Positions 3,487 to 50,632 are shown, counted from the stretch's first letter. The stretch: 64,000 nucleotides of DNA from Rhodanobacteraceae bacterium (GCA_031422315.1 JANOQN010000074.1:19444-83443), one strand, 5' to 3'. Program-made: numbers and translations. Notes: generated by a model not told the origin, from the sequence alone.

Positions 3487-4038
3487 TAGTTTGCCGTGCC
3501 GCTCGGACCACGAGCAGATGCTTGAGATTTTCATGTGGGTTTTCCTGGTGAGTGGAATTTGCTTCAGGTGAATTAGCTATCGGTAAAAACGCACCCTCCC
3601 CCAACCCCTCTCCCATAAAGGGAGAGGGAGCAAACTAGCGCTTCGATCAAAACAGAAGGCGGTTTTAGCCCCTCTCCCTTTATGGGAGAGGGGTTGGGGA
3701 GAGGGTTGTATTAGGTTGCTAGCCAAACTTCTCGCAATAGGAGCAGCGCTGCGGTCATTAGTTTGCCGTGCCGCTCGGGGCACGAGCAGCTAGGTAAAGT
3801 ATTCATATGGGTTTTCCTGGTAGGTGTGTTGGCTATTGGTAAAAACAAACCCTCTCCCCCAACCCCTCTCCCATAAAGGGAGAGGGGAGCTAATTCGCGC
3901 TTCGATCAAAACAGAAGGCAATTGCCCTTCATGAAAGAAAACTCAGTAGCGCTTCGTTGAGCGCAGAAATCCGTTTTAGCCCCTCTCCCTTTATGGGAGA
4001 GGGGTTGAGGAGAGGGTTTTATTAGGTTGCTAGCCAAG
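3471..4038. repeat. Tandem duplication of a ~270-bp unit (unit 1 at 3471..3738, unit 2 at 3743..4038). Each unit carries the first ~5 codons and 5' leader of the upstream gene plus a ~120-170-bp palindromic MITE/REP-like element.
   Basis: The string gcagcgctgcggtcattagtttgccgtgccgctcgg...gggttttcctggt...ggtaaaaac occurs at 3471 and again at 3743. Each copy contains an inverted repeat: cccctctcccataaagggagagggg, then cttcgatcaaaacagaagg, then cccctctccctttatgggagagggg. Confidence 0.85.
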
Positions 4039-8397: not shown

Positions 8398-9362
8398 AAA
8401 TTAGATTGTCCAAGGTGACTCCCACTAGCTAGCGAGCTTTGAATCAATTTTTTATTAGTTAACGAACGACGCGCCCAATGCTCTTTTTGACGCTAATAAG
8501 CTTAATAAGCCGCAATGCGGCGAGAAGACTTGAATCTAAAGCATTGAGCCTAATGCCGCATTGTCGGTTTAATTCAAAAGTTAGAGCAAAGTGGCGCGGT
8601 AGTTTTGTTGCCACAGCTTGCCTTACCAATTAGCTGACGAAACACGAACGGCAACTTCAGTTTGCGAGCATTAATGGGTTGCAACCCGCAAACGATTTTC
8701 GAGCTGCTGACGCTCCATGATTTTGCTATGAAGCTAACTTAAAATAGGAATGCCATATGCGGCGCTAACTGTTGAGCAGAGCGAAGCGTGAGGACGCACT
8801 TCGGCTAGAGGATGCCAACGTTCCACGTGTCGCTGCGGCTGAACTGGTACTTGAAACCGGCAATTCTCCAATTTCCAGACTTCTTTGCAAGGATGAACAT
8901 GAACTTGTAGTTCACAACAGGTCCGTCTGTCTGGAACGTCAATTCAGTTCGACTTGGGCTCTTGTCAACATTTGAAAGAAGTTTCGATACATCGACCCCT
9001 TCATACTTTGTTGGAATGCCCAGCGATCATTTTCGGTGTTGCCTTGCAATGTTGTCTGCAGTGTGTCGGTTTTACTGCATTTCCCTGCATGGATTTGGCG
9101 TTGTTTTGAAGGTTTTTCTGGGCGATGACCGCATTGCGCCTGCCAGCTACTTAGAGCCGCGTTTTGATCGCTTGATTTCTCTCTTGACGCCTCATGTGGC
9201 GCTTGGTTGTCGCAGTGACGGGGTCGTTTTCAGCGTGTTCGGGCTGACAACAGTTACGCGGACCATATCGAACGAGATGACGGCCCTGGGCGCAGACAAA
9301 TTCGAGGATCGATACGGCCAGCTCTGATAGCGCAAGGCCATTGCGCTCGCGCTCGAGGTAGA

Positions 9363-10964: not shown

Positions 10965-11049
10965 GCACTCGTGGTGGAATTGGTAGACACGCTACTTTGA
11001 GGTGGTAGTGGAGTAATCCGTGACGGTTCGAGTCCGTCCGAGTGCACCA
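10965..11049 (+). tRNA. tRNA-Leu (anticodon GAG), class II tRNA with long variable arm
   Basis: Acceptor stem gcactcg/cgagtgc, discriminator A, and CCA. D-arm GGAATTGGTAGAC. Anticodon stem-loop ctact-TTGAGGT-ggtag gives anticodon GAG. T-arm GGTTCGAGTCC. Confidence 0.9.
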
Positions 11050-30922: not shown

Positions 30923-33079
30923 CTATTTCGAGGGCTTCAGAGCACTCTGCTTGCGCGCATCGGAGCTGCTCGCGGCCGCTAAAATATCGCTCAGATCCCC
31001 ATTTTCTTGCAGCTTTTTCAGCGCGTTGACCAGCGTTAAATCGCGCGCCGAAGCAGCGGATGAACCCAGCGCAGCAATCAGCGCCTGCGCGTCATCCACC
31101 AGCACGCGCGAGCCATCCTGATAGCCCTTGCTGGCATGCGTCAGCAGCTCACTTGCGCCGACCGTGGCGTCAATTCCGCGCCCAATCGATAGGCTGCGCA
31201 TGAAGCGCTCGAAGAACTCGCCGTCACCACCGACGATCTCGAGCTTGGCCTGTTTGAGCGCTTGGCCCAGCACGGAGGCCTGTTCGCCAGCAATAATTTG
31301 CTGCGAATCGAGCGCCTTGATGCGCTGAATGTGCGCATAGTCCATTTGCATGCGCTGCTCTTCGTGCGCACGGATTTCCGGGCTCATCGCGGTCATGGCG
31401 TCGAACTTTTCCCGCAGGCCTTTGGATTCTGAGGCAAAGCGCGCGGCCGTGGCTGATGCATCCGCTTCGCCCAGTAATTTGCGTCCTGAGGCTTCCGCTG
31501 CCAGCTTTTGTCCGAGCGCATCGGCAATCGCGGTTCCCTGCTTAGCCACGGCTTCGGCGTCGGCAATTTTACCACTGGCTTCCGCGCCCATTTTCAATCG
31601 TAGTGAACCGGCTTCGGCTTCGCCCATTTTGAGCAACGCATCCGCGTCAGCTTCTTTGATTTTCGCGCGCACCAGGCCTTCTTTTTCGTTCGCATCGGCC
31701 TGCGCGAGCTGCACTCTGGCCTGCGCTAAACCGCTCGCCGCGCTCATCGCTTCGATGCCTTCAGCCTCGCGTTTTTTCGATTCTGCCGCTTTCGAAGCCA
31801 CCACCAAACGCGCATCAGCCATTGTAAGCTCCTGATTCGCTTGATGTTTCGCGCGCTGCTCGTCCGCTTCGGCTAGTTTGACATCGGCGATGTATTTTTG
31901 CTCCGCCTCACCCTGCGCCAGCACCACGGTGGCTTTGCGAGTGCGTTCGGCATCGGCAATCGCGCGAATATCTTTGATGGCCTCTTCTTGCTCGGCGACG
32001 GTGCGTTCCACCACAATACGCTCGCGAATCACATCGGCAATTGCCTTGCGCTGCACTTCTAATTGCTTATCGCGCTCAATTTCTTGCAGCGCCACTTCGC
32101 GTTCGCGATCTACCACTTCAAGTTTGCGCGCACGTATAACTTTTTCTTCTTCAATCGCCACTGCACGCAGGCGATTGTTTTCCGCAACCTGCGTTTCGCG
32201 CTTTAGATTTTCAGTTTGCACCGCCAAAACTTGATCGGTGGAAATGCGCGCCAGCTCGCTTTTAGCGCGCTCTTCCTGCTGCACTTTTGCCGCTTCCGCA
32301 TCTTCCCGGGCTTTGTTGACGCCAATCTCGCGCTGTTGACTTGCGAGTGCAAACGCCTGCTGGCGATCTAGCTCCATGATGGCTTCGGAGGTTTCCACGT
32401 CTTTCTTTTTGATGCGCATTTCTTCATCACGCCGGAACACGTTGGTGCGGATGTGCTCCTCGGCGGTCAGCTCGGTAATTTTCTTGATGCCCTGCGCGTC
32501 TAAAATATTATTCGGATCAAGCATTTCCAGCGGCGTTTGCTCGATGTAGTCAATCGCGGCATCCTCTAAGTGATAGCCGGATAAGTCTTGCCCAATTTGG
32601 CGAATAATTTCATCCCGGAAGCGATCCCGCGCCTGATACAAATCAACAAAATCCATCGACTTACCGACGGTTTTCAACGCTTCAGAAAATTTCGCAGAGA
32701 ATAAATTTTCAAGCGTTTCCTGATGCGAAGCGCGCTCACAGCCGATCGCTTGCGCAACGCGCAGCACATCCTCGACGGATTTGTTGACCCGCACGAAAAA
32801 CTTCACCTTGATATCGGCACGGATATTGTCTTTGCAAATCAAGCCTTCCTTGCCAAAGCGATCAATCTCAATCGTCTTGAGTGAGATGTCCATTACCTCA
32901 CAGCGGTGCAGGATCGGAATCACCATTTTGCCGGTAAAAGTCACGTCCGGCTCGGTACGCATGGTGTTGACGATCATCGCCTGACCCTGCTCAATCGTTC
33001 GGTAGAACTTGGCAAGCATCGCCAGAAACCCGAAAAGTATGAGTACGCCAATAACTACAATAATGATAAAAGTTGTCAT
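30923..33079 (-). CDS. flotillin / SPFH (band-7) domain protein, YqiK-like, with long Ala/Glu/Lys-rich coiled-coil tail
   Basis: N-terminal TM (FIIIVVIGVLILFGFLAMLA), then an SPFH domain (MIVNTMRTEPDVTFTGKMVIPILHRCEVMDISLKTIEIDR), then extended EA-repeat coiled coil typical of flotillins. Confidence 0.85.
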   Translation of the reverse strand: MTTFIIIVVIGVLILFGFLAMLAKFYRTIEQGQAMIVNTMRTEPDVTFTGKMVIPILHRCEVMDISLKTIEIDRFGKEGLICKDNIRADIKVKFFVRVNKSVEDVLRVAQAIGCERASHQETLENLFSAKFSEALKTVGKSMDFVDLYQARDRFRDEIIRQIGQDLSGYHLEDAAIDYIEQTPLEMLDPNNILDAQGIKKITELTAEEHIRTNVFRRDEEMRIKKKDVETSEAIMELDRQQAFALASQQREIGVNKAREDAEAAKVQQEERAKSELARISTDQVLAVQTENLKRETQVAENNRLRAVAIEEEKVIRARKLEVVDREREVALQEIERDKQLEVQRKAIADVIRERIVVERTVAEQEEAIKDIRAIADAERTRKATVVLAQGEAEQKYIADVKLAEADEQRAKHQANQELTMADARLVVASKAAESKKREAEGIEAMSAASGLAQARVQLAQADANEKEGLVRAKIKEADADALLKMGEAEAGSLRLKMGAEASGKIADAEAVAKQGTAIADALGQKLAAEASGRKLLGEADASATAARFASESKGLREKFDAMTAMSPEIRAHEEQRMQMDYAHIQRIKALDSQQIIAGEQASVLGQALKQAKLEIVGGDGEFFERFMRSLSIGRGIDATVGASELLTHASKGYQDGSRVLVDDAQALIAALGSSAASARDLTLVNALKKLQENGDLSDILAAASSSDARKQSALKPSK

Positions 33080-33146: not shown

Positions 33147-33815
33147 TTAACTGAGCGGCTTTGGCTGATACGCCTCAACCTCATAACGCTGCCGCACTTC
33201 ATCAAAGCTGAGTATCAGCGCACTTGATCCGCGTACCAATTCATTTGGCGCAGTGGCATACACCGCCACCACAATCGGGCTGCCATCCGTGCGCACTTCG
33301 GCTTGACCAAATTTTTCGTCAACGTTTGAAGTCGTGACTTTGCAGACGCTGCCAATCAAATCGAGCTTGCGAGCCAGCCCGCCTTGAACTGCAAAAATCG
33401 GTTTGAGTGGCCGCACGCAGTGCCCGGCAATTGGCAGCGCCAGCGCCAAACACATCAGCAAACCCACGCTGCCGCTAATCCAACTTAATCCGCCCGCTGC
33501 TCCCGGCATGCTTGGCAAAACATGTTGCTGCAGCAAAATCGTCAGCACCCACCAGAAAAACACTATCGAGCTGATCACGACCGAAAACGGCAAGCGATCA
33601 AAGCCGAGCGCCACCAGCATATCGGGCGTGCCATGCGCATCGTCATGCAGCCCATCCGGGCCATCGTGGTGTAAATCCACGTGCCAATCTGGGCCTACGT
33701 GATCTAAATCCAGCACACCGACAATCGACAGCAGCCAAAAGATCAAAACAATGCCCATCAAGGCCGAAGGAATCAGGCCTGGAAATAGCGTAATGCTGGC
33801 AATAAATGCATCCAT
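33147..33815 (-). CDS. NfeD/YqiJ-like inner-membrane protein (DUF1449-type), the usual operon partner of SPFH proteins
   Basis: Multi-TM N-terminus, a His/Asp-rich loop (DLDHVGPDWHVDLHHDGPDGLHDDAHGTPD), then a C-terminal OB-fold-like soluble domain. In E. coli yqiJ precedes yqiK in the same order. Confidence 0.65.
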   Translation of the reverse strand: MDAFIASITLFPGLIPSALMGIVLIFWLLSIVGVLDLDHVGPDWHVDLHHDGPDGLHDDAHGTPDMLVALGFDRLPFSVVISSIVFFWWVLTILLQQHVLPSMPGAAGGLSWISGSVGLLMCLALALPIAGHCVRPLKPIFAVQGGLARKLDLIGSVCKVTTSNVDEKFGQAEVRTDGSPIVVAVYATAPNELVRGSSALILSFDEVRQRYEVEAYQPKPLS

Positions 33816-34225
33816 CAGGGTTTGGGTTCTCGTTTAAGGTCAGTGCCGGGCTTGCCGGATGTTAGCGCGGACTTGATACGGCTGTGTACCTTAGAAAGTT
33901 GATTTGCGTGCGCGTCGAACGATTTTGCAGTTTCCTGCGCATGCGCAAACTGGCTAATGTCCGCAACATGATCCGGCTTGCCAGCAATCAACGCATTTTG
34001 CAGCTTTTCCGCGCGCCGTTTGGCTGCTTGCGCCTTTGCTAGTGCGGCTTGCAGCTCGGTTTCGACGCGTTTCAAGAGCGCCTGCGCTTGGCTTGCGGAA
34101 AGTTGAGCGGCTTCGGCTTCAGTGATATCGCTGGTTAAATCGGCTTTAACGCTCGCCAGCATTCGATTAAACCAACGCATTTTGGATTTCGTCTCAAGCG
34201 CTGCGCAAAAACCAGCGATTCCCAA
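33815..34225 (-). CDS. small coiled-coil protein (136 aa); first gene of the flotillin operon
   Basis: Strongly helical, Ala/Gln/Lys-rich sequence (EAEAAQLSASQAQALLKRVETELQAALAKAQAAKRRAEKLQ). Its stop TGA overlaps the ATG of the YqiJ-like gene (TGATG). Confidence 0.5.
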   Translation of the reverse strand: MGIAGFCAALETKSKMRWFNRMLASVKADLTSDITEAEAAQLSASQAQALLKRVETELQAALAKAQAAKRRAEKLQNALIAGKPDHVADISQFAHAQETAKSFDAHANQLSKVHSRIKSALTSGKPGTDLKREPKP

Positions 34226-34268
34226 TATTTAACGCACAGCGGAAGTTCTGCGCGTGCCACTAGACATG

Positions 34269-34318
34269 GCGTTTTTGCCAAAAGGGTTTGCATCATCGCC
34301 GCTTGCCGCTAAGCTCGG
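34269..34318. repeat. left copy of a ~50-bp direct repeat (promoter-like) whose other copy lies at 38903..38952, bracketing a 4.6-kb insertion
   Basis: cgtttttgCCAAAAGGGTTTGCATCAtCGcCGCTTGCCGCTAAGCTCGG here, versus cgttttcaCCAAAAGGGTTTGCATCAcCGtCGCTTGCCGCTAAGCTCGG at 38903. It contains TTGCAT, a 16-bp spacer, then TAAGCT (a sigma70-like -35/-10). Confidence 0.8.
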
Positions 34319-34457
34319 ATCAACTGGAGCGCAGCAAAACATTCATGACGATTTCCGTCCAAGCTATAGTCGCTTAACAGTAAATTTCAGTTGCAAATGA
34401 CGCTGAGTTCGGCGCAAGCTCGTCAGCGAAACGTCTTGACTGTCACTGGAACAACCG

Positions 34458-35528
34458 ATGAAAAAAATCCTTCTGATCATTGCTCCGCTTTTAATTCCTA
34501 GCATTGGTTTTCCGCAAGAAATCTGCGGATTGCAGAACGTTAGCTACAATAATGTTTTCAAGAACGGTTTTGAGCAATTAATTGCTGCTGCAAGCGCAAA
34601 AGAACTTAAGGTTAAAAGCAACGCAAGCAAATCGGCTCAGCCCGACTTAGGCGCTCCGATGGGCATGGCGCCTATTCCAAATGGCGGAACTCCAACAATT
34701 ACCATAACGAGTCCTGCTGCTAACGGCATTTTAGTCGGTCGGAAGCTTCAAATTCGAGGCACCATTACTGGACCTATCAATACTGGAGTTAGTGTGAACG
34801 GAGTCGCCGCTTATGTTCAAGGAAATCAATTTTCAACGTCGATTTTAACTTTGCCATCGACTGGCGCAATTGCCATCACAGCATTGGCGAAAACACTCGA
34901 CGGTGCTGTGGCTAACGCAACCAGGATGATGTCAGCTGGCCCAGAGAATGGCGTAGTTTTCACGAGCGCTAAGCCCGCTGAATATACCAATCGCCCCGTT
35001 TCATTTAATTTGTCTGTTCAACCTAGCATAGTTATTCAACAAGTTTCTGTTGATTTCAATGGTGACGGAATTGCGGAGTTCACCGGCGCAAATCCCTCGC
35101 TTATTCCTTCTTCGTACACATATGCGCAACCCGGCGTATTTAGTGCCGAAGCAACCGTTGTTACTGCACCACCAAATAGCCAAACATTCACCTCAAAAGC
35201 CATCATCGCTGCAATTGATATCGTTGATCACCGGATTCGCGTTTGCTCGGTATATGGCACGTTGCGTCAACGTCTTACTGCGAACGACGTTGCTGGCGCT
35301 ATTAGGGTTTTTCCGCAAGAGAACCGGCCCCAATACGAAGCGTTATTTAACGCGCTAGGTACGAATCGCCCAGTTTTCGCGACGCGCATGGGAACGATCG
35401 CAACTGGGCTGCTAACGCTTACCGATGCCAATATGACTGTGATCACAAACAGCGCAGGCACAACTAGCGCTTACAAGGTACGTTTCGCTCAAAGCGCTGA
35501 TGGTGTTTGGCGTATTGAGGATATGTAG
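34458..35528 (+). CDS. secreted protein with Ig/PKD-like beta-rich repeats (356 aa)
   Basis: Signal peptide MKKILLIIAPLLIPSIGFP; Thr/Ser/Gly-rich beta-strand composition. First gene of the inserted islet. Confidence 0.55.
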   Translation: MKKILLIIAPLLIPSIGFPQEICGLQNVSYNNVFKNGFEQLIAAASAKELKVKSNASKSAQPDLGAPMGMAPIPNGGTPTITITSPAANGILVGRKLQIRGTITGPINTGVSVNGVAAYVQGNQFSTSILTLPSTGAIAITALAKTLDGAVANATRMMSAGPENGVVFTSAKPAEYTNRPVSFNLSVQPSIVIQQVSVDFNGDGIAEFTGANPSLIPSSYTYAQPGVFSAEATVVTAPPNSQTFTSKAIIAAIDIVDHRIRVCSVYGTLRQRLTANDVAGAIRVFPQENRPQYEALFNALGTNRPVFATRMGTIATGLLTLTDANMTVITNSAGTTSAYKVRFAQSADGVWRIEDM

Positions 35529-35980
35529 TGTTTCAATCAGATCCGGTTTGGTGGGTCAAGATATTAAAAGTATTTATTGGCGTTTGGATTTATGGGCACG
35601 GATGGTTCATCCCTGTTTATTATGGCGCAATTTACTTGGTCGCGTGCTTTATTCGGGATAGGTTTAACATCAGTTGGGCCAGTAGAACGCCAATGTGGCT
35701 TTTTGTTTTTGCTCTAAGTGGTTGTCATGGTGCTTTGTGTGCAGTAATAATAAGCTGTCCTTTGTTATTCATGACACCAAAAGGCGATTTGAATTTTATT
35801 TTTTTTATTCTGTTGATTTCTAACATTTATTCTTTTCTGGTTTTAGTTAAATCAATACGACTTACCCTAAAAAACGAAATAGAAAAATCTCTTGTTTCTT
35901 TAAAAAGAGGTCTAATCGTGCTGGCACCGAGCGTTTTACTGCTGTTTTTTATCGGGGATAATCTTGCAAACTCACCTTGA
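35528..35980 (+). CDS. small polytopic membrane protein encoded in a markedly AT-rich segment
   Basis: Four hydrophobic segments. Local GC is visibly far below the window average (runs such as ttttttattctgttgatttctaacatttattcttttctgg). Start and stop overlap the neighbouring genes. Confidence 0.45.
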   Translation: MFQSDPVWWVKILKVFIGVWIYGHGWFIPVYYGAIYLVACFIRDRFNISWASRTPMWLFVFALSGCHGALCAVIISCPLLFMTPKGDLNFIFFILLISNIYSFLVLVKSIRLTLKNEIEKSLVSLKRGLIVLAPSVLLLFFIGDNLANSP

Positions 35981-38814
35981 AGGTCAACATGAGAAATAAT
36001 ACGGCACTTTTCGCGCTGCTGCTTCTTTGTGGCGAATTATATGCGTTTGAAGTTGGTACTCACGCTTTAATTTCAAAAGTAGCGCACGACGGTTCGGTTT
36101 TATCACCTTCGAATCCGAAATCTATAGTTCCAGTTTTGGGATTTGAGCGACTTGACAAAATATCCCCATTCGCGGCGCTCTTTCAAGGAGTTTTCGACAA
36201 TGTGTATCTGGATAACGAGACGCCGACTGACCCCAATAACGCCAGTCTTTCATCGCTCGATTTTAGGCGTAGACCGCAAGAAGAAGAACGGAAAATTTTC
36301 AGGGGATTACTAACGCGGGGTTTTCTTGTCGAACCCAATGTTGGAGCTTTTGAGCTTACGACGCCCGCTTGGCTTATGCGCGGTTCTATTCGCGAAGATG
36401 ATAACGACCTAGCGACTTACAGTGTTGGTGAGCGTGATGAAGACCCTTGGGGAAATCACTTCCGTGCGCCTTCGCATTTTTACGATCCTATAAACAATGC
36501 TGCTTACAACAAGCCGTTGCAGTGTACTCCAGCAACATTTGACTGCAATCGTTCAACTGAGTGGGCATTGGGTCGAACAGACCTTTTGACAGGTGCCGGA
36601 ATGTTGCAACAAAACCGGCGCAATCACTTCACCTGGCAAGACGCGAGAAATAACTATTGGTGGGCACTAACGCTCACAAAGTCCGGAACTATACCTACAT
36701 CGCTTCAACGGCAGACTGATGCATATGAACGGCAGGTTCGATTTGCCACCACGGTGAAATCAATCGGCCATGTGATTCATTTGCTGCAAGACGCCGGGCA
36801 ACCCCAACATACAAGAAATGACGCGCACGGACCGGTTGCTTCGAGTTTTGCAACTGGAGATGCAGCAGGCGCAAAAAACGGTATTTTTGAACAATACACA
36901 GAAGCTCGCGTGCTTGGCCTCGAGGTGACTGGCGCATCGGCGTCGTTCTTTGATGGGAGCTTCCCGCCGGCGGATTTACTGCCACCCGTTAAGCTTTCGG
37001 GTGCCCAGCCTTATCCCATCCCGAGATTTCGGCTGCCCGTTTTTTACTTTACTACCCGCGCGGTTGATGCAGACGTAAGCAATAGACGCGGGCTGGCGGA
37101 CTATTCAAATCGCGGATTTTTCACCTTTGGCACGCTACCTAAAACCGGTGCATTTGCGTTTCCTGTTAGGCCAAGCGTTTCACCGGCGACGTACAGCACT
37201 TTGGAAGTTGATACCGGGTTAATTGCGGGCGGACAGCCAGTATTGGAGAAGCTGCTGTTAGCGTCTGTCGCAGATTCACTCAATCCAACCTATGACTCGC
37301 AAAGCGGACTTTTAACTGCCTTTGGAGGCAAAGTTCCTTTGTTGCGCGCGGGTATTTTTGAACGCGGATTTGATCTTATTCAAAACCCGCAACTCGCCCC
37401 GGCAGATATCGGGCTTGTTATTGATGAGAACGTGATGCGTTACAGCGCCGATACGCTTATTCCAAGAACGATTGCATACTCAACAGGCATGATTGATTAC
37501 TTCTTTCGCGGCAGGCTTGAGATACAGCCAAACGAGCAACGACTTTTTGGCGTGTTAGATATGGGCACTCCGCATACCGTTGATCCTGATGGGTATCCTC
37601 GCCGCGCCGACCAAAGAATTTTTGGCTTTGAAAAAGTACGCCTGAAAGTTCGAAACGTTACTGAGTTAATTACCGAGTCCGGTAACCTGCAAACATTTCC
37701 TCAGACTGTTGGAACGGGCAAATTGGTTGCGGTTGCTCGTTACCATAGAAACGCATGCTACAAACCCGATTTGAGTGGCGAGCGCGCTCAAGCCTATGCG
37801 CCAACGCCACTCATTGGAAACATCACTGAGCCTACCTGTAGCGTTGGACTTCCAACTAGAACGCAGGTGCAAGAGATATCAGTTTCAGCACCAATCAATA
37901 TTACTGGCCCCAGTGATTTACCCGGTGGCGCTGGCGGAACGCTTCCCGCAGCGCTAGACAAAGTATTCGACTTCAGCGCAGACCCAATTCCCGTCAATGC
38001 CACCGATCTATTTATCCAAGTCGTGTATCGCGGCCAGCTTGGTGAGGAAACTGATGGTATTGCGGTCGGGATTGTTGATGTGCAGGAACCCACTTTCTAC
38101 ACCACATGGAATAACACCGACTATTACATCAGCACACTCAACAGCGCCTGGTTTATCCAAAATTCGATGAGCATTATGCGGCGCGGAGTTGACGCGCTCA
38201 CGCTTTGCGCTGGGTTTCCTAGCCGCGTCATTTACACCTATGGCCCCGCTAATGGCCCCGCTTTGAGCCCCTTTGTCGCTCAAATTAACCCAGAGGCGGT
38301 GCGGCTTGCATTGATTCTCGGAAAACCTAATACCCCCGCCTCAACTTTTAGCGTTCGTAGTATTCCACAAATGTTCCCGGCGCCAAGCGCGATTACTCGC
38401 TCGGTATTTATGCCTGGGCAGCAGCGCCAAGCAAGCCGAGAAACATTTAACGCAGCCGATCCGCTGCCCACACCGGTTCGCTGTCAAGCTGCGCAGCCTG
38501 CAGCAGGCACCAGCTTTTGGTGCTTTGATCCAGTGCAGCGTCGGCGCGGGCAAAACATGGGCGATGGCGCGCAGCCGATTTTTTACTCAACCGGATCGCC
38601 GAACTTATCAGACCCCGATGTTGATGCGCCGCCGCTACCGGTTTTTCCGGGTATGCCCATCGTAAGTGGCGGCGTCAATCGATTTGATTTGGACGCTACC
38701 GCCGTGAATTGCCCGATGGTGCAGCCACCCAGCGTTGAAAAGCGTTTGCTTGAGCTGCGTGAAGAAGCCGCTGAGCTCGGGATTGATTTGGATAAGGTTA
38801 GGCTTGATAACTAG
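35977..38814 (+). CDS. large secreted protein of unknown function (945 aa)
   Basis: Signal peptide MRNNTALFALLLLCGELYA; long ORF with consistent codon usage; no catalytic motif recognised. Confidence 0.55.
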   Translation: MKVNMRNNTALFALLLLCGELYAFEVGTHALISKVAHDGSVLSPSNPKSIVPVLGFERLDKISPFAALFQGVFDNVYLDNETPTDPNNASLSSLDFRRRPQEEERKIFRGLLTRGFLVEPNVGAFELTTPAWLMRGSIREDDNDLATYSVGERDEDPWGNHFRAPSHFYDPINNAAYNKPLQCTPATFDCNRSTEWALGRTDLLTGAGMLQQNRRNHFTWQDARNNYWWALTLTKSGTIPTSLQRQTDAYERQVRFATTVKSIGHVIHLLQDAGQPQHTRNDAHGPVASSFATGDAAGAKNGIFEQYTEARVLGLEVTGASASFFDGSFPPADLLPPVKLSGAQPYPIPRFRLPVFYFTTRAVDADVSNRRGLADYSNRGFFTFGTLPKTGAFAFPVRPSVSPATYSTLEVDTGLIAGGQPVLEKLLLASVADSLNPTYDSQSGLLTAFGGKVPLLRAGIFERGFDLIQNPQLAPADIGLVIDENVMRYSADTLIPRTIAYSTGMIDYFFRGRLEIQPNEQRLFGVLDMGTPHTVDPDGYPRRADQRIFGFEKVRLKVRNVTELITESGNLQTFPQTVGTGKLVAVARYHRNACYKPDLSGERAQAYAPTPLIGNITEPTCSVGLPTRTQVQEISVSAPINITGPSDLPGGAGGTLPAALDKVFDFSADPIPVNATDLFIQVVYRGQLGEETDGIAVGIVDVQEPTFYTTWNNTDYYISTLNSAWFIQNSMSIMRRGVDALTLCAGFPSRVIYTYGPANGPALSPFVAQINPEAVRLALILGKPNTPASTFSVRSIPQMFPAPSAITRSVFMPGQQRQASRETFNAADPLPTPVRCQAAQPAAGTSFWCFDPVQRRRGQNMGDGAQPIFYSTGSPNLSDPDVDAPPLPVFPGMPIVSGGVNRFDLDATAVNCPMVQPPSVEKRLLELREEAAELGIDLDKVRLDN

Positions 38815-38902
38815 CCTATGAAAATTCTGGCGCTGTAAAACGATCAATTAATCTTTGACACCTGTACTGGATCCCCGCCTGCGCGGGGATGACGCGGTAC
38901 TA

Positions 38903-38952
38903 CGTTTTCACCAAAAGGGTTTGCATCACCGTCGCTTGCCGCTAAGCTCGGG
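38903..38952. repeat. right copy of the ~50-bp promoter-like direct repeat, immediately upstream of thiG
   Basis: 48 of 50 nt identical to 34269..34318; weaker similarity continues ~40 bp further toward the ATG. Confidence 0.8.
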
Positions 38953-38980
38953 GCATCCAACTCAACCGAATTCGGAGTGC

Positions 38981-39775
38981 ATGCTCATGTTTACTGACCC
39001 AAAGCCGCTCGTGATTGCTGGCAAAACCTACGCGTCTAGGTTGTTGACCGGCACCGGCAAGTACAAAGATTTAGAAGAAACCCGGCTTGCCACGGAAGCT
39101 GCCGGTGCACAGATCGTGACCGTGGCGGTGCGCCGGGTCAATATCGGCCAGGATAAGAGTGAACCCAATCTACTCGACGTGCTTGACCCCAAGCGCTACA
39201 CGATTTTACCGAACACCGCCGGCTGCTTTACCGCGCTGGATGCAGTACGAACTTGCCGATTAGCGCGCGAATTATTAGATGGCCACAATTTGGTCAAGCT
39301 AGAGGTTTTGGCGGAGCAAAAAACGCTGTTTCCGCACGTGATTGAAACGCTGGTGGCGCTGGATATTCTGGTCAAAGAAGGCTTTGAAGTCATGGTTTAC
39401 ACCAATGATGATCCAGTGTTAGCCAGGGAAATGGCGCTGCGCGGCGCAGTTGCGGTCATGCCGCTCGCTGCACCGATTGGCTCGGGGCTAGGTGTGCGCA
39501 ATCCGTACAATATCTTGACTATTGTTGAGGAAGCGACCGTGCCGATACTGGTTGACGCCGGCGTTGGTACCGCATCCGATGCCGCCATTACAATGGAACT
39601 CGGCTGCGATGGCGTACTAATGAATACCGCGATTGCCAGTGCGAAAAACCCGATTCTGATGGCCAGCGCCATGCGCAAAGCGATAGAAGCGGGCCGAGAA
39701 GCGTTTTTAGCCGGTCGAATCCCTAAAAAACGCTTTGCCTCGGCTTCTTCGCCTTTGGATGGGATTTGGTTTTAG
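38981..39775 (+). CDS. thiG: thiazole synthase ThiG
   Basis: [20 protein letters not shown]-terminus and (beta/alpha)8 ThiG core ([17 protein letters not shown]). A GGAG RBS lies 7 nt upstream of the ATG at 38981. The track ORF extends upstream to 38855 in frame, but that part is not ThiG-like. Confidence 0.9.
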
Positions 39776-39838: not shown

Positions 39839-42232
39839 CTACTTTTCAGCCGTGAAAATCGGAATAGCACTGGGTTCCGGCCACTGATACGTTGTCAATG
39901 AGGCTTGCTCGGTTCCATCTTGACTTGCCTCCACCCAAGCTGTGCGAAACCCGGAGCCGGTTAAGCTGCTCAAAAACTCACGCTTTCCGGTGACACCAAT
40001 GGCAATGGCAGTCGTATTGACCACGCCGTTAATGACCTGCAAACGACGAATTTGATTTGCACTTGGCAGCAATAAGCTGGCATCCGGCAAGGTAAACGCA
40101 AATTGGGTGTTGCCTTGCATCTGTGCGGCGCTAATTGCGGTCGAGTTTCCGGTTGGGCTGACCTGTCGATAGCTTGGTTCGGCGTCGTAGGGTTCTCGGA
40201 GTATCCAAGCGCTGCCATCTAGCGCGCCGATGACACGATCTGTTTCGGTCACATCGCTTATCTGCCAGCGTGTTTGCCCGGTTGGGCTAGCGCGAAACAA
40301 AATCTGATCCGCGCTTCGCAATAAAAGCTCGCCATTGGGCAACAAATTGACTACGCGCTCGGCGCGAAAAACTACGTTAAGCAAACGCACTTGATAGTTT
40401 GCATCAATCCGATAAATCTCAATCGGGCCATTTTGCACTGCGCGATACAGGCAGCGGGCATAGTCCGAGGTCAAGGTAAAATCCGCTTCATAGCAAGTAA
40501 GCTCTGAAAATTCGCCAAGCGGTAACGCTAAATTGGCGCTCACTAAACCGTCTCGATCAATCACCCGAATCGAGTTGGTGTTTGTCGCTTCATTGTATCC
40601 AGTAACCAACAGCGCTTGCCCCACTGCAAGTAATGTTGGATAGCCAAAATCACTCAATAAATCCCGCTCCCACGCGATGCGATTGTTAGGTAGCGCTTTA
40701 GCCAGGGTGTTTTGTTGGGTGTGCACGAAAATCGTGTCTGCACTTTTGAAATGAAGGCCTCTTTGATTGTCAACTTCAAAAAGTTGAACGGCCCCGGCCT
40801 CACCTGACTGCACAAAGTGCGTGCGATTGCGGGCCAGATAGCTGAGTGCAACATCAACGCTATTTTTAGGCTTTAACAGCAGCCGAACGGCACTGGGCAG
40901 CGTATTAGCACGAGGAAACTCCGCGCTGGTGCGCAGCGCGCCACTATTCTGGTATTGATTGATCGAATAGCCAGAAGCAAAGCTGCGGCTCTTGGCAATG
41001 GCAATTACGCCGCCGCCTTCAATATGTGCGGCGCTTTCTAGGCCCGCAGGCAGCGCAGCGCGGGTACCGTCTGTACGAATCCACTCAAAGTCGCCGTTCA
41101 CGGTAGAAGATCGCTTGGCGTTGTAAATCAACACGCTTCCATCGCTAGCAACGTTGGCTTCAACCGGGGGCTCAGTTAATGTGCCAGCAAAACGATATTG
41201 CCAGCGCACTAAGCCGGAAGAGTCCAATCGATACAGCATTTGCGAGCGAGTGCCATCGTTTACCCGTGCAAAAACGGTCATCCCGTCAAGATCGGCTTGC
41301 AAGTCAATTGGCGATGTCAATGGCACGCTATTACTAGGAATTCGCCAAATTTCCTTTCCGTTGCTATCGAAGAATCGAAAATCACTTGCAGCCCCAAGCA
41401 AAAGCGTGCCGCTAAGCTGTGGAACGATTGAGATGCGGCTTACACCCGTCAATCCCTGTAAGTTCGTCTCATAAAGCAGCTCACCGGCAGTATTCGCGCG
41501 AAGCAAGCTAAATTGAATTTGTTCAAACGATACGCGCGTTTGCCGAAGCACACTAAAGCTACTACCGCCCTGCACCATGCTGTGGCGCGGTGCGTAAAAA
41601 ACCGGCGCCGATAGTTTGCAATCAATCGAAATCGGCACACAAAAATGCGCAAGACTGACCGGCGCATTAAGCGCAGGGTCGGTGCTGGTCAAATCGAACC
41701 AGCGTGCCGTAGCATTCGATTTTTGCACTAATAAAAGCCGCCCGTCAGGCGCTTCATAGACATCTGCTGTTCCAGAAATTCCGCGCGTAGAAACCAATCG
41801 ACCTAAGGCATCGTATTTACTAATACTCATCGAAGGTGGCGGCTGAGGACTCTCAAATGAGCCACTGGAATAGTAAATTGTGATGAAACCACCGGATTGC
41901 AGCGTCATTTTTTTTGGGCTGCCCGAACCGAAATAGCTGCTGCTGTAGTCATAAATGCTCGGCGCGTTGACAGGCAACGTGAGCCCGCCCGATCGAGGAT
42001 CAAGCGCATTAAAACTTCGCCCGTAGTAAAAACTACTGCTGCTTTTGAGCTGCACAATTTGCCCGCCAACAATCGGGAATGCAGCGGTGACTAAATGCGC
42101 CGAAAAATCACTAGCTGGCAGCGGCGAATTGGTTTGCGCAGCGGAAAAAGTGGCTGTAATGCCCACACACAGTCCAAAAATGGCTTGTTTTACGGCTGGC
42201 AGTGATTGGCTGAAAAACGCATGGATAGTCAT
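39839..42232 (-). CDS. large secreted beta-rich protein (797 aa), possibly beta-propeller
   Basis: Signal peptide; repetitive Gly/Ser/Thr-rich beta-strand segments. 3-bp gap to the upstream gene. Confidence 0.5.
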   Translation of the reverse strand: MTIHAFFSQSLPAVKQAIFGLCVGITATFSAAQTNSPLPASDFSAHLVTAAFPIVGGQIVQLKSSSSFYYGRSFNALDPRSGGLTLPVNAPSIYDYSSSYFGSGSPKKMTLQSGGFITIYYSSGSFESPQPPPSMSISKYDALGRLVSTRGISGTADVYEAPDGRLLLVQKSNATARWFDLTSTDPALNAPVSLAHFCVPISIDCKLSAPVFYAPRHSMVQGGSSFSVLRQTRVSFEQIQFSLLRANTAGELLYETNLQGLTGVSRISIVPQLSGTLLLGAASDFRFFDSNGKEIWRIPSNSVPLTSPIDLQADLDGMTVFARVNDGTRSQMLYRLDSSGLVRWQYRFAGTLTEPPVEANVASDGSVLIYNAKRSSTVNGDFEWIRTDGTRAALPAGLESAAHIEGGGVIAIAKSRSFASGYSINQYQNSGALRTSAEFPRANTLPSAVRLLLKPKNSVDVALSYLARNRTHFVQSGEAGAVQLFEVDNQRGLHFKSADTIFVHTQQNTLAKALPNNRIAWERDLLSDFGYPTLLAVGQALLVTGYNEATNTNSIRVIDRDGLVSANLALPLGEFSELTCYEADFTLTSDYARCLYRAVQNGPIEIYRIDANYQVRLLNVVFRAERVVNLLPNGELLLRSADQILFRASPTGQTRWQISDVTETDRVIGALDGSAWILREPYDAEPSYRQVSPTGNSTAISAAQMQGNTQFAFTLPDASLLLPSANQIRRLQVINGVVNTTAIAIGVTGKREFLSSLTGSGFRTAWVEASQDGTEQASLTTYQWPEPSAIPIFTAEK

Positions 42233-42235
42233 TAG

Positions 42236-44794
42236 TTAGTTCTCAAAACCGTTTTGAAACGCTTCGTTTGCACGAACTCGCAAGGTAATTTCACCACCGC
42301 TCAGGCTTTCCGATACCGGCACGAATTCGCCGAGCCCTGGGTTACAAAGGCCTGAAGCGGCGCTGCCCGCAGGACATTGAATATTTGGATAGACCATATT
42401 TAAATACCGATTCGGAAAGTCCGTACTAATGAAACCAGGCGAGCTCGTGGCGAACTCAAACCTGCCCTGCGGATCGCTGCGAACGCTGGCGCTGATGACC
42501 AGCGTGTCGTTTGGTAGCCTCGTCCATAAATCAATGATCGCATTGCCAATCGGCGCATTGTTTTGATCGTCAAGCAAGGTGCCCCGAATGGCTTTGCGCA
42601 GGCGTGGAGTGAAATCCACATTCTCCACTTGTTGCCCTGCCGCTAAAGTAATCGCAGTGGCCAGAGCAAAGTTACAGCCTTCAAACGCATTGATACCAAG
42701 TGCACAGTTTTGGTTCTGAAAAAGTTGATCAAACGACACTCCGTCACTGATGCCAAGCTTATAAGTACCGGGGTATAAATCAAGCAATCGGTAGCGGCCA
42801 GATTCCTGAAATGCGAACTCTGAAAAAAGCGGCTGGCCTGCCACGTTGAACGTATAAATTAATGAAGTGCCATTTTGGCCGCCGATACTGGAAGAGCGCT
42901 CCAAGATAAAATCGTTTGCGGCGATGACGTCCGGCGAGTTAAGCCCAATGCTGAGCGTTTGCATACCAGGGCAATTGCGAGGCGATTGATAGTACCGACC
43001 TCGCGCATCACTACAAGCAACTCCTGGAAAGGCTTGATCGTAGTGTTCTAAACCACCCGCAAAAAGCTTGTAAGTTCCGGGTTGAAGGTCGATAAAACGC
43101 AATTCGCCGGTGCCCGATTGATATTCAGTTGCGTAGCTTTGAAAGTTGTTATTGACGCCGAAGGCCGAACCGAGCCCAGCGACCGGCAATTGCGTAATGC
43201 GATCCTTCAGGCGAATTCGAACCTCTGGCAGCGCGCGAAATACCACGGGCACTTCGATAATATCTGAGCCAATCACGATCGGTGGCGTGCTCATCAGCGC
43301 TTCAAAACAAGGATCTATACAGTCAATGTTGGGCAAAACCCGCATGAATGAATTGCGAGTTTGCACGCGAAATAAATAGCTTCCAGGCAGCAACGGGATA
43401 AACGTTTGCGGTCCGAATAGTTGCTTGAAGAACACGAACGTGCCGTTGGGTCTAAAAATCGAAACACTGGCACTATCGTTCCAAGTGAAATTAGGCGTTA
43501 ACAAATTAACGCCACCGGCCCGTTGCAGATCAAAGTTAACGATAGCCGTTGAGCCCAACTGCAAAAACACCGGCTGCGCTTGTGCGAGCGGGCAATCGCT
43601 AATGCTGGGGCCTTGGCAAGGCAAATTTGGGTGGATACTGGGCAGTAAGCCAACCCCATTGGCGTAAACCAGCACCGGCTCTGGAAAAAGCCCTTGAATT
43701 TGGTATCGCCCCACCGCATCGGTTGCGCCCGAAAAAAGCGTTACGCCCTGAGCCGTCACACCCGAAACCGAAACAGGCTGCGAAGCGGCGCCAGCAGGAA
43801 CACTGACAACTCCCCGCAGCTTCGCACCCTCAGGCAGCGGCAGCGGTGCCAACGTGATTGCGCTATTTGCTGGCGTTAAAATTAACTGTGCATTCGTCAA
43901 TGAGCAACTCGACAACGCGCGCTCGGGCCTACATACGCCACTTGGGTAGACGGCGTTAATCCAAGTCGAAGGCGTTAGTTTTTCTGTGCGCAGGTAAACC
44001 CGCGCAATGGCTTCCGGCACCGCGATTTCATAGGTGCCGGTACTTTCATTACTAAAATCGCTGCCTAAATAACGCTGCTGCTCGTCAAAAAAAGTCGCTG
44101 CGGCGCGTACCGCGCTACCGTCCTCACGCTGCAAGCGCCCGCTTAACGTCGCGCCTTGTAGAAAACGTAAACGTACTGGCAAAACCTGAGCGCTTAAGCT
44201 TTGAACGCGAACCAAATAAGTCTGATGGACATTGCGCCGGGGCAGCGCTAGCCTTGCCTGCAGGCCAAAGCTATCATCAGCTGATTTGACTGACTCAACT
44301 TCAGCGCAATCGCTAAGAACCTCAATCAGCGTGTCCGCATGCGAACCGATGCTGTCAACAATTTGCAGCGTATTTTCAGGCACCGCCACGCGCAGCCAAA
44401 GTGTGCGCTGCGGTTCAAAATAAACCGTGAGCGCCTGCTTATGGTTAAAAAGCAGCGGATTTGTGCAACGGCTACCCGCGCTGGCTTGATCCTGCGGCAA
44501 CGATGCGAGCGCTTCGCTAGCATCAATAAATTGCATATCTGATCGAAATCCATTCGCTTTCGCATCTTGCAGGCGTATGAGTGCCTGCATTTTGGAGTCC
44601 AGCTCGCCTTGCTGATTCGATAAGCTTTGCAAAGCAACAAACGATGCCGGGATAGGCTCAGCGATCAATTGCGCTTGTAAACGATCTAGTTCAATGCGCT
44701 GATTTGGCAAACTTGTGGCCAACGATTGCGCAATGAGTGGTTGCGCGCAAAGCAAAGCGACGAAAAAGAGTGATTTTGGCTTGAAAGACTTCAT
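42236..44794 (-). CDS. large secreted protein (852 aa) with carboxypeptidase-regulatory/Ig-like beta-sandwich repeats
   Basis: Signal peptide MKSFKPKSLFFVALLCAQPLIA; repeated ~80-aa beta-rich modules. Confidence 0.5.
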   Translation of the reverse strand: MKSFKPKSLFFVALLCAQPLIAQSLATSLPNQRIELDRLQAQLIAEPIPASFVALQSLSNQQGELDSKMQALIRLQDAKANGFRSDMQFIDASEALASLPQDQASAGSRCTNPLLFNHKQALTVYFEPQRTLWLRVAVPENTLQIVDSIGSHADTLIEVLSDCAEVESVKSADDSFGLQARLALPRRNVHQTYLVRVQSLSAQVLPVRLRFLQGATLSGRLQREDGSAVRAAATFFDEQQRYLGSDFSNESTGTYEIAVPEAIARVYLRTEKLTPSTWINAVYPSGVCRPERALSSCSLTNAQLILTPANSAITLAPLPLPEGAKLRGVVSVPAGAASQPVSVSGVTAQGVTLFSGATDAVGRYQIQGLFPEPVLVYANGVGLLPSIHPNLPCQGPSISDCPLAQAQPVFLQLGSTAIVNFDLQRAGGVNLLTPNFTWNDSASVSIFRPNGTFVFFKQLFGPQTFIPLLPGSYLFRVQTRNSFMRVLPNIDCIDPCFEALMSTPPIVIGSDIIEVPVVFRALPEVRIRLKDRITQLPVAGLGSAFGVNNNFQSYATEYQSGTGELRFIDLQPGTYKLFAGGLEHYDQAFPGVACSDARGRYYQSPRNCPGMQTLSIGLNSPDVIAANDFILERSSSIGGQNGTSLIYTFNVAGQPLFSEFAFQESGRYRLLDLYPGTYKLGISDGVSFDQLFQNQNCALGINAFEGCNFALATAITLAAGQQVENVDFTPRLRKAIRGTLLDDQNNAPIGNAIIDLWTRLPNDTLVISASVRSDPQGRFEFATSSPGFISTDFPNRYLNMVYPNIQCPAGSAASGLCNPGLGEFVPVSESLSGGEITLRVRANEAFQNGFEN

Positions 44795-44973
44795 TTTGCT
44801 GCCTAGCTTGAAAGCAGTCTGAAATTTAGTCTATCTGTGCATAAAAATGCAATTAATAAGTTGTTAAAACAGAAAATGAAGCGAAAATGCACTCATTTGT
44901 GCGAGCCAAACTGATGTTTTTTTGGGTGCTCGCGCCAGGATTTCTTGGGTTTGCGCAGGTTCTAGCGCTGAAA

Positions 44974-45144
44974 GCGCGGCACAAGGTAGCCTGGGGCAAC
45001 GCCCCAGGTGTTGGTACACCACGCTTTAGAGCCCTGTAAGGGCGCTACAATTGGTTGTCATATACATTGTGTCGCCCTTACAGGGCTTAACTTTGAGTGT
45101 TGCTTGAACCTGGGGCGTTACCCCAGGCTACCTTGTTGCGCGCC
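44974..45144. repeat. 171-bp nested perfect/near-perfect palindrome (MITE-like or large structured element) in the intergenic region
   Basis: Outer arms gcgcggcacaaggtagcctggggcaacgccccagg and cctggggcgttaccccaggctaccttgttgcgcgc. Inner arms agccctgtaagggcg and cgcccttacagggct. Central palindrome acaattggttgtcatatacattgt. Confidence 0.8.
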
Positions 45145-45370
45145 TTTGGCGCTTTAATCTTGGCCTTGTGATGCGCAATGTTTCTTGAAAGGTCATGCGT
45201 TCCTTTAAATGACTGAAAACTGGAAATCACCAAATTGGGTTTCCACCTAAGTTTGAAGCGGTCAACAGAAAAACATCAGTCTGGTTCGCACCCACATCCG
45301 AAGCGCTTTGCTGGCTCAGCTTACCTTTTAAGCTACTATTGAGTCTAGTTACCTGCCAAAAACGTGAGTC

Positions 45371-50267: not shown

Positions 50268-50538
50268 GCGGATTCCTCAACACGTATTTAGAGCGCGAAG
50301 TATGCCGCAAGCACAGCATTTGCGCAGTGCCGATGGCGCGCCAATCCACCGCGCTGCCGCAAAAATAGGGGCCTTCCGCATTTCCCGGTGCGTTCAGCTG
50401 ACCTTGATCCCAGGGATCAAGTGGAGTGATCGGCCTAAGCCTTAGGCTTTCCGCATGGAGCGGACATGCACACGAGGCCGGCGAGTGATCGCTCCGGGGT
50501 CAAGTTATGGGACAAGGCGATATGTTGAAGCGCTGCCA

Positions 50539-50632
50539 AAGATCGCAGAAGGCGCACTGCCATAGTAGCGAGCAATTGCGAACGACTCAAGACGGCAATT
50601 GCGAAGGTGCGTTCACCTAAGTGATTAAGTGT
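50539..50632. repeat. left copy of a ~95-bp direct repeat flanking the rhodopsin gene (right copy at 51781..51875)
   Basis: aagatcgcagaaggcgcactgccatagtagcgagcaattgcgaacgactcaagacggcaattgcgaaggtgcgttcacctaagtga, versus aagatcgcaaagggtgtacggccagagtagcgcgcaactgcgaacgacttaagacggcaattgcgaaggcgtcttcacccaagtga; ~80% identity. Confidence 0.8.

Follow-up and report, generated by a model that had tools for sequence, protein, structure and literature searches.

How does a block of compositionally deviant genes come to lie between two copies of what appears to be the promoter element of a resident gene? The question is raised by a locus in a 64,000-nucleotide (nt) stretch of DNA from Rhodanobacteraceae bacterium (GCA_031422315.1 JANOQN010000074.1:19444-83443), which we analyzed as a whole and refer to as the window; positions are counted from its first letter. 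Upstream of thiG, the gene for thiazole synthase, lies an islet of three co-oriented genes (A, B, and C) encoding proteins of 356, 150, and 945 amino acids (aa), sizes that match exactly those given in an initial annotation made from the sequence alone. A 49-nt direct repeat brackets the islet, with one copy before gene A and the other before thiG. On balance, we regard the islet as the probable product of an insertion that left the thiG promoter element in duplicate. Below, we present the evidence from the repeat, its flanks, and related genomes, weigh the alternatives, and describe the three-gene module itself.

A direct repeat at both ends of the islet

Copy 1 of the repeat occupies positions 34270-34318 and copy 2 positions 38903-38951, both on the forward (+) strand. 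The initial annotation had located both copies correctly but had put their identity at 48/50; the two agree at 45 of 49 positions (92%). Copy 1 lies 139 nt upstream of gene A and adjoins a divergent operon whose first gene encodes a coiled-coil protein, and copy 2 lies 36-84 nt before the thiG start. Each contains the hexamer pair TTGCAT-16 nt-TAAGCT, and the repeat extends from ~20 nt upstream of the -35 hexamer to ~3-7 nt past the -10 hexamer, with no internal palindrome. From its position, its conservation above background, and the span of the repeat, we consider both copies to be putative promoters.

No third copy was found in the window: a 41-nt core pattern allowing up to three mismatches matched two sites, and the chance expectation was 0.00 matches (100 shuffles). 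The element is similarly confined beyond the window. In 1.2 Mb of fetched loci (designated by L numbers), sites with up to nine substitutions occurred only upstream of thiG or of the islet's 356-aa gene; the initial annotation had named a widespread intergenic motif as an outcome that would refute its reading. Exact patterns gave no match, either in 185,579 species genomes (strict form) or in Joint Genome Institute (JGI) metagenomes (looser form), both collections being without the source lineage. Sister contigs L082 and L083 (96-97% DNA identity) keep copy 1, and the similarity between their copy 1 and copy 2 of the window spans 53 nt at 92.5%. Within the window, the sequences 3' of the two copies share no likeness beyond the repeat (local alignment against shuffles, p = 0.37), which rules out a longer duplication that once included the thiG leader and start codon.

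Copy 2 as the native thiG element

The thiG gene (38987-39775, +; 262 aa; Pfam PF05690, E = 4.8e-106; homologues 98-100% identical) was compared with thiG loci of metagenome contigs, at 98-99% identity in the protein and 84-90% in the DNA; a metagenome scan for the thiG 5' end returned no further contig. In L005, L008, L009/L010, and L013, the element lies just upstream of thiG at the same distance as copy 2 and is followed by a leader like that of the window (38952-38986, +), which carries a GGAG ribosome-binding site and is conserved with L005, L008, and L009. Across eight aligned sequences, GCCGCTAAGCT is invariant. Between the window and L009, identity is 44/49 in the element, compared with 58/85 in the preceding spacer, which has large indels, and 25/34 in the following leader. 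The orthologous copies upstream of thiG, together with this excess of conservation over the flanks, mark copy 2 as a resident thiG element that evolves more slowly than its surroundings. Comparative sequence thus identifies copy 2 as the native upstream element of thiG.

Between gene C and copy 2 lies a GC-rich hairpin without a U-tail, ATCCCCGC-CTGC-GCGGGGAT (38871-38890, +). It is conserved in the islet-bearing L009 and L013 and half-conserved in the islet-free L005 (about 3190-3215). The hairpin, which is single copy in the window, marks the point at which L005 loses similarity to the islet-bearing genomes. No terminator was predicted between gene C and thiG, and the hairpin was not called as one; without a convincing terminator after gene C, read-through from copy 1 may also reach thiG. 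The region upstream of thiG yielded no THI-box/thiamine pyrophosphate riboswitch (Rfam gathering score across the window; E <= 1 for 34100-39100), and the leaders matched no other RNA family in Rfam.

The left flank and the empty site

The divergent operon to the left of copy 1 comprises, in order of transcription on the - strand, the coiled-coil gene (33815-34225; a 136-aa open reading frame [ORF], 121 aa in gene callers), a gene for a 222-aa membrane protein (33147-33815), and a gene for a 718-aa SPFH/flotillin-like protein (30923-33079; Pfam Band_7, 3.6e-11; NCBIfam FloT-like, 3.7e-7, below cutoff). In L006 (JGI sample 3300015360; ThiG 98% identical), homologues of the coiled-coil gene (46%) and then of the 222-aa gene (88%) abut thiG on the other strand. 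Window positions 34213-34317 align with the L006 spacer between the coiled-coil gene and thiG at 77/102 positions, and the match stops at GCCGCTAAGCTCG, the 3' end of copy 1. By this alignment, copy 1 has the ancestral place beside the left flank. In L012, the 252 nt before thiG belong to the L006 type (159/212 identical to L006). Both L006 and L012 lack the islet and have a single copy of the element, whose -35 part is diverged. Relatives with the coiled-coil gene beside thiG and one repeat copy had been predicted in the initial annotation; L006 is such a relative, and L012 has a thiG-upstream region like it.

Filled and empty sites are found at short genetic distance. The thiG genes of L009, L011, and L012 are mutually 98.9-99.6% identical in DNA, yet L009 has gene C upstream (91% protein identity to the window) and L012 has the empty-site type, with a breakpoint between the two near the thiG start codon. 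Near-identical thiG genes with different upstream regions indicate that the two states coexist in very close genomes.

Gene content, composition, and age of the islet

The left end of the islet (34319-34457, +), a putative 5' leader of the islet operon, has no similarity to the thiG leader and no Rfam match. This 139-nt stretch between copy 1 and gene A contains a 10-codon mini-ORF (34346-34378, +; ATG ACG ATT TCC GTC CAA GCT ATA GTC GCT TAA), identical in L082 and L083, relatives too close to be informative.

Gene A (34458-35528, +) encodes a protein with a signal peptide, a disordered linker, two immunoglobulin (Ig)-like beta-sandwich domains, and a C-terminal alpha/beta domain. It matches Glucodextran_B (7e-8) and Big_7 in Pfam; Foldseek matches to its AlphaFold model (predicted local distance difference test score, 79.6) were to tandem Ig-like domains only, and 17 homologues were found. 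Gene B (35528-35980, +), whose start overlaps the gene A stop, encodes a small polytopic membrane protein; homologues hold the equivalent place in L002 (34% identity) and L081 (44%), and it has no match in the curated families of Pfam, NCBIfam, and PADLOC. Gene C (35977-38814, +; the start may instead be the ATG at 35989, which matches a 941-aa database entry) encodes a protein with an N-terminal domain of the zinc phospholipase C (PLC)/S1-P1 nuclease fold followed by ~600 aa of beta-rich domains. None of the three proteins matched an NCBIfam model, and none matched PADLOC anti-phage defense models at E <= 0.1. Since stop and start codons overlap at both the A/B and B/C junctions, the three genes appear translationally coupled and look like one operon. 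The products of genes A and C are predicted to be secreted.

The islet genes have the lowest GC content at third codon positions (GC3) among the 43 ORFs of the window (mean, 0.563; standard deviation, 0.065): 0.426 for gene A (z = -2.1), 0.338 for gene B (z = -3.5), and 0.477 for gene C (z = -1.3). The AT-rich middle stretch reported in the initial annotation was recovered at 35550-36000, where GC content is 0.33-0.37 against a window mean of 0.53; gene B as a whole has a GC content of 0.369. Gene B is also the lowest-GC member of the trio in L002 and L081, which indicates that its AT-richness is partly intrinsic and reflects a hydrophobic composition. The initial annotation had taken the composition of the middle gene as a sign of foreign origin, and the GC3 of all three genes supports that origin.

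Comparison with L009 also dates the islet in relative terms. DNA identity between the window and L009 is 87.5% in the C-terminal half of gene C and 89.6% in thiG, with third-position identities of 73% and 72%. Gene C and thiG have diverged together, placing the islet beside thiG before the window and L009 lineages split. By this estimate from sequence divergence, the islet is old rather than recent, being common to a lineage at ~87% DNA identity.

Origin of the duplicated element

Our account of these observations, which extends to the function of the element and which we consider probable though far from certain, is an insertion that left the thiG promoter element in duplicate. In the ancestral state, the operon for the coiled-coil, 222-aa, and flotillin-like proteins would have run leftward and thiG rightward, with ~130-200 nt between them holding a single element, P. 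A 4,633-bp segment with the horizontally acquired A-B-C operon would have inserted at the 3' edge of P, and recombination, most likely within P, would have left a full copy on each side. The placement of the exchange is suggested by the flanks: a full resident copy stands on each side, and each outer flank is orthologous to one side of the single-copy site, which points to recombination within the duplicated sequence. A circular molecule that carried a P-like sequence may have integrated here, or the event may have been an equivalent one; either would yield direct repeats like attL and attR. Copy 1 would now precede the incoming operon and probably drive the islet genes, and copy 2 would keep thiG under its own promoter, with read-through possible. 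That the change was an insertion rather than a deletion, and that it proceeded by this kind of recombination, is what the flanks and the composition of the islet suggest. An insertion duplicating the thiG promoter had been the simplest reading in the initial annotation, and the empty site and the native status of copy 2 largely support it; the junction, however, lies at the 3' edge of the element and not inside the thiG leader.

Several observations weigh against this account. The promoter label is weak: although TTGCAT-16-TAAGCT is present in both copies, as the initial annotation had stated in calling it sigma-70-like, each hexamer fits the sigma-70 consensus at 3/6 positions (6/12 overall) with a 16-nt spacing, and a promoter scan of the window placed the site below threshold and did not list it. 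The key positions TTG and TA...T are kept in both hexamers. As for mechanism, searches of Pfam and NCBIfam returned no integrase, transposase, or other recombinase domain in the islet or neighboring proteins; no terminal inverted repeats pair the islet ends; and there is no tRNA target at the islet, the only tRNA gene of the window lying at 10965-11046. The incoming element would also need to have carried a P-like sequence beforehand, a feature that the account leaves unexplained. The age of the islet bears on its original junctions: in an islet this old, 92% identity between the copies needs selection or gene conversion, and the junctions may have been reworked. The outgroup L084, a metagenome-assembled genome (MAG) of Rhodanobacteraceae, has recN upstream of thiG, and this different neighborhood means that the ancestral state is not polarized by the outgroup. 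Finally, the count of the element covers the window and the 1.2 Mb of fetched loci, and further copies elsewhere in the source genome are possible.

An alternative that we consider unlikely, but that accounts for several features of the repeat, is promoter capture: the trio landed first, without duplication, and P was copied across later by tandem duplication, a microhomology junction, and loss of a redundant copy. The landing site could have been the interval between the coiled-coil gene and P, or that between P and thiG, with selection for expression of the new operon or for restored expression of thiG. Placement of a transferred gene behind a host promoter by spontaneous duplication or deletion is frequent in experiments (PMC6614815), and bacterial genomes commonly hold conserved promoter segments of 50-100 nt in front of unrelated genes (PMC3488235). 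The repeat covers no more than the promoter element, stopping ~3-7 nt beyond the -10 hexamer. In addition, three sequence states, AAAAGGG, CGCTTGCC, and CTCGG, are common to both window copies and are not present in the orthologues of L005, L008, and L009. These shared states hint at either gene conversion or a duplication younger than the islet, the sites being too few to decide between them. Against capture, at least two extra rearrangements with clean junctions would be needed, and the DNA beside each repeat shows no trace of another islet or another thiG copy.

Insertion is likewise to be preferred to loss. We think it distinctly improbable that the islet is ancestral and that L006 and L012 lost it by homologous recombination between the direct repeats. 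A precise deletion between repeats of ~50 nt is possible and would account for the single copy in L006 and L012; the age of the islet equals or exceeds that of the split of the window and L009 lineages, and the comparison with L084 does not settle the ancestral state. Yet the single copy in L006 and L012 is strongly diverged in its -35 part and is followed by a leader that cannot be aligned with either window flank, unlike a recent hybrid of the two copies, and the islet genes have the most deviant GC3 in the window and their nearest homologues outside the clade in unrelated contexts. That the element is instead a dispersed repeat (of the repetitive extragenic palindromic [REP] or miniature inverted-repeat transposable element type, or a common kind of promoter), present at either end of the islet by chance, can be dismissed almost entirely: REP-like repeats do occur near other trio loci (L004 has three copies, one inverted) and the searches stopped short of the whole source genome, but the element has no palindrome, its two copies are the only ones in 64 kb and its other sites in 1.2 Mb are all upstream of thiG or the islet's 356-aa gene, the genome and metagenome collections gave no exact match, and both flanks are orthologous to a single-copy site.

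A divergent putative zinc hydrolase leads the module

Homologous loci show that the trio also exists elsewhere, which supports the preferred reading, an insertion. Structural modeling places the N-terminal domain of gene C in the all-helical fold of the zinc PLC/S1-P1 nuclease superfamily, whereas the ~600 beta-rich residues gave no structural match. The sole sequence-profile match in the PDB was Listeria PLC (E = 0.052), aligned at HFYDP and GHxxHxxxDxxQPxH...E, and no Pfam family, Zn_dep_PLPC and S1-P1_nuclease included, matched gene C even at E <= 5. None of its 176 homologues has a Pfam domain. Six residues are invariant in 63 homologues: H167 (in HFYDP), H268, D272, H278, H284, and E305. 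We take these histidine, aspartate, and glutamate residues to be putative zinc ligands, as in Bacillus cereus PLC and alpha-toxin. In our reading of the sequence, gene C would encode a secreted zinc hydrolase that acts on phospholipid head groups or nucleic acids, with Ig-like and membrane partners.

A gene A homologue lies 0.4-2.4 kb upstream of the gene C homologue in ~50 of 67 loci from named MAGs, which were assigned to Lysobacterales, Rhodanobacteraceae, Dokdonella, Rudaea, Burkholderiales, Casimicrobiaceae, Acidiferrobacterales, Thiogranum, and others; recognizable gene B homologues are present in L002 and L081. Outside the clade, the contexts of the trio are unrelated to thiG. In L002 and L003, it lies among helicase-Toprim, RadC, TrwB-like, and Cap15-like genes, and in L004 between dsbD and a thiolase gene. 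Gene A, a small gene, and gene C thus form a conserved module that recurs across several orders in unrelated contexts.

Tandem arrays or several copies of gene A and gene C homologues are frequent (L056, L024, L064, L067, L068, L080, and L081). In L081, a fragment like window positions 37961-38069 lies directly upstream of a complete second trio. In L055, a Thiohalobacter MAG, the trio is flanked by a unique 68-nt direct repeat (2443-2510 and 8885-8952; 97% identical), the first copy of which overlaps the 3' end of an 806-aa ORF; L055 could represent another insertion accompanied by a long duplication. Flanking direct repeats were rejected as a general property of the trio: L055 alone among 39 loci has a unique pair, the repeats of L004 are REP-like, and those of L027 and L056 reflect tandem gene arrays. 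Carriage of the trio on plasmids was also considered and rejected. The one instance, a distant gene C homologue (a hypothetical protein by annotation, with 34% identity across 60% of the query) at 1900-3604 of NZ_CP035703.1, a small, non-mobilizable 17-kb plasmid of Pseudolysobacter antarcticus, is too weak.

A bolder proposal, to which we give little credence, is that the trio is an undescribed, widespread extracellular system of Lysobacterales, Burkholderiales, and Acidiferrobacterales that behaves as a recombinase-free, promoter-seeking cassette, with duplication of an unusually long target (~50 nt) at resident promoters. If this were true, the cassette would be expressed immediately, the host gene would not be silenced, and L055 would be a second instance.

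Other variable DNA around thiG

The DNA on both sides of thiG is variable. Downstream, a second variable segment (39839-45300) separates thiG from cysS; on its - strand it encodes a PQQ-like beta-propeller protein (797 aa) and a CarboxypepD_reg protein (852 aa). In L005 and L006, a toxin-antitoxin pair follows thiG, and cysS comes next, either directly or after other genes. The modules directly downstream of thiG differ between genomes: ParC-like/ParE in L005 (4213-4937), PhdYeFM/ParE in L006 (1892-2439), a HI1420-type pair in L008 (1043-1637), and PhdYeFM in L009 (2223-2471).

Two matches to the Rfam motif Acido-Lenti-1, at 44964-45008 (-) and 45109-45153 (+), lie at the edge of this segment, which is absent from relatives. 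They score 44.7 and 37.4 bits (gathering score, 37), are inverted ~100 nt apart, and enclose a second inverted pair at about 45033-45052 and 45074-45090. The motif's published description draws on Acidobacteria and Lentisphaerae (PMC2864571); the genome that carries it here is apparently gammaproteobacterial. An ordinary 6S RNA gene was also matched at 50369-50554 (-; 71.5 bits).

Comparison with known systems

The islet resembles integrase-type genomic islands in that genes of deviant composition lie between direct repeats, are present in some close relatives (L009) and absent from others (L012 and L006), and leave one repeat copy that preserves the function of the target. Unlike such islands, it has no recombinase and no tRNA or tmRNA target, measures only 4.6 kb, and duplicates an intergenic promoter element rather than the end of a gene. 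It also differs from insertion sequences and transposons, having neither terminal inverted repeats nor a transposase.

As for the element, the closest parallel is with putative mobile promoters, defined by Matus-Garcia, Nijveen and van Passel (2012) as segments of at least 50 nt with at least 80% identity within a 100-nt upstream frame (PMC3488235). Here too, one genome has a promoter-sized segment of 92% identity in front of two unrelated coding sequences, and the coding neighbors are non-homologous both downstream (the Ig-like 356-aa protein and ThiG) and upstream (the coiled-coil gene and the 945-aa gene). At 49 nt, the window repeat is one nucleotide below the length used in that work, whereas copy 1 of L082 and L083 matches window copy 2 over 53 nt (92.5%). 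Two differences stand out: the copies are only 4.6 kb apart at the ends of a single insertion and are not scattered, and the distance of copy 1 from the start codon is 140-188 nt, beyond the 100-nt frame. Promoter capture by transferred genes, which laboratory work has recorded in the form of amplifications or deletions (Li and Bock 2019, PMC6614815), likewise sets a transferred block directly downstream of a resident promoter; the pair described here differs in being stable and old enough to be shared by lineages at ~87% DNA identity.

The gene C protein is closest to the superfamily of zinc PLCs and S1-P1 nucleases (Clostridium perfringens alpha-toxin, B. cereus PLC, Listeria PlcB, and nuclease S1), at 12-16% sequence identity, and matches no Pfam or NCBIfam model. 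Unlike those enzymes, it is fused to ~600 aa of unmatched beta-rich domains, and an Ig-like protein and a small membrane protein always accompany it. As the very divergent PLC/nuclease-fold lead of a largely unannotated three-gene module that is common in soil and wastewater Proteobacteria, it belongs to the part of the finding most worth pursuing.

The locus offers a clean natural example of a transferred operon wired in with the neighboring gene unharmed, in which the resident promoter element stands on both sides and close relatives still include both filled and empty alleles. Neither the islet nor the module overturns current understanding. The finding is tidy but fairly ordinary, joining two things that are each already known: a small islet with direct repeats and a promoter-sized segment shared by unrelated genes.

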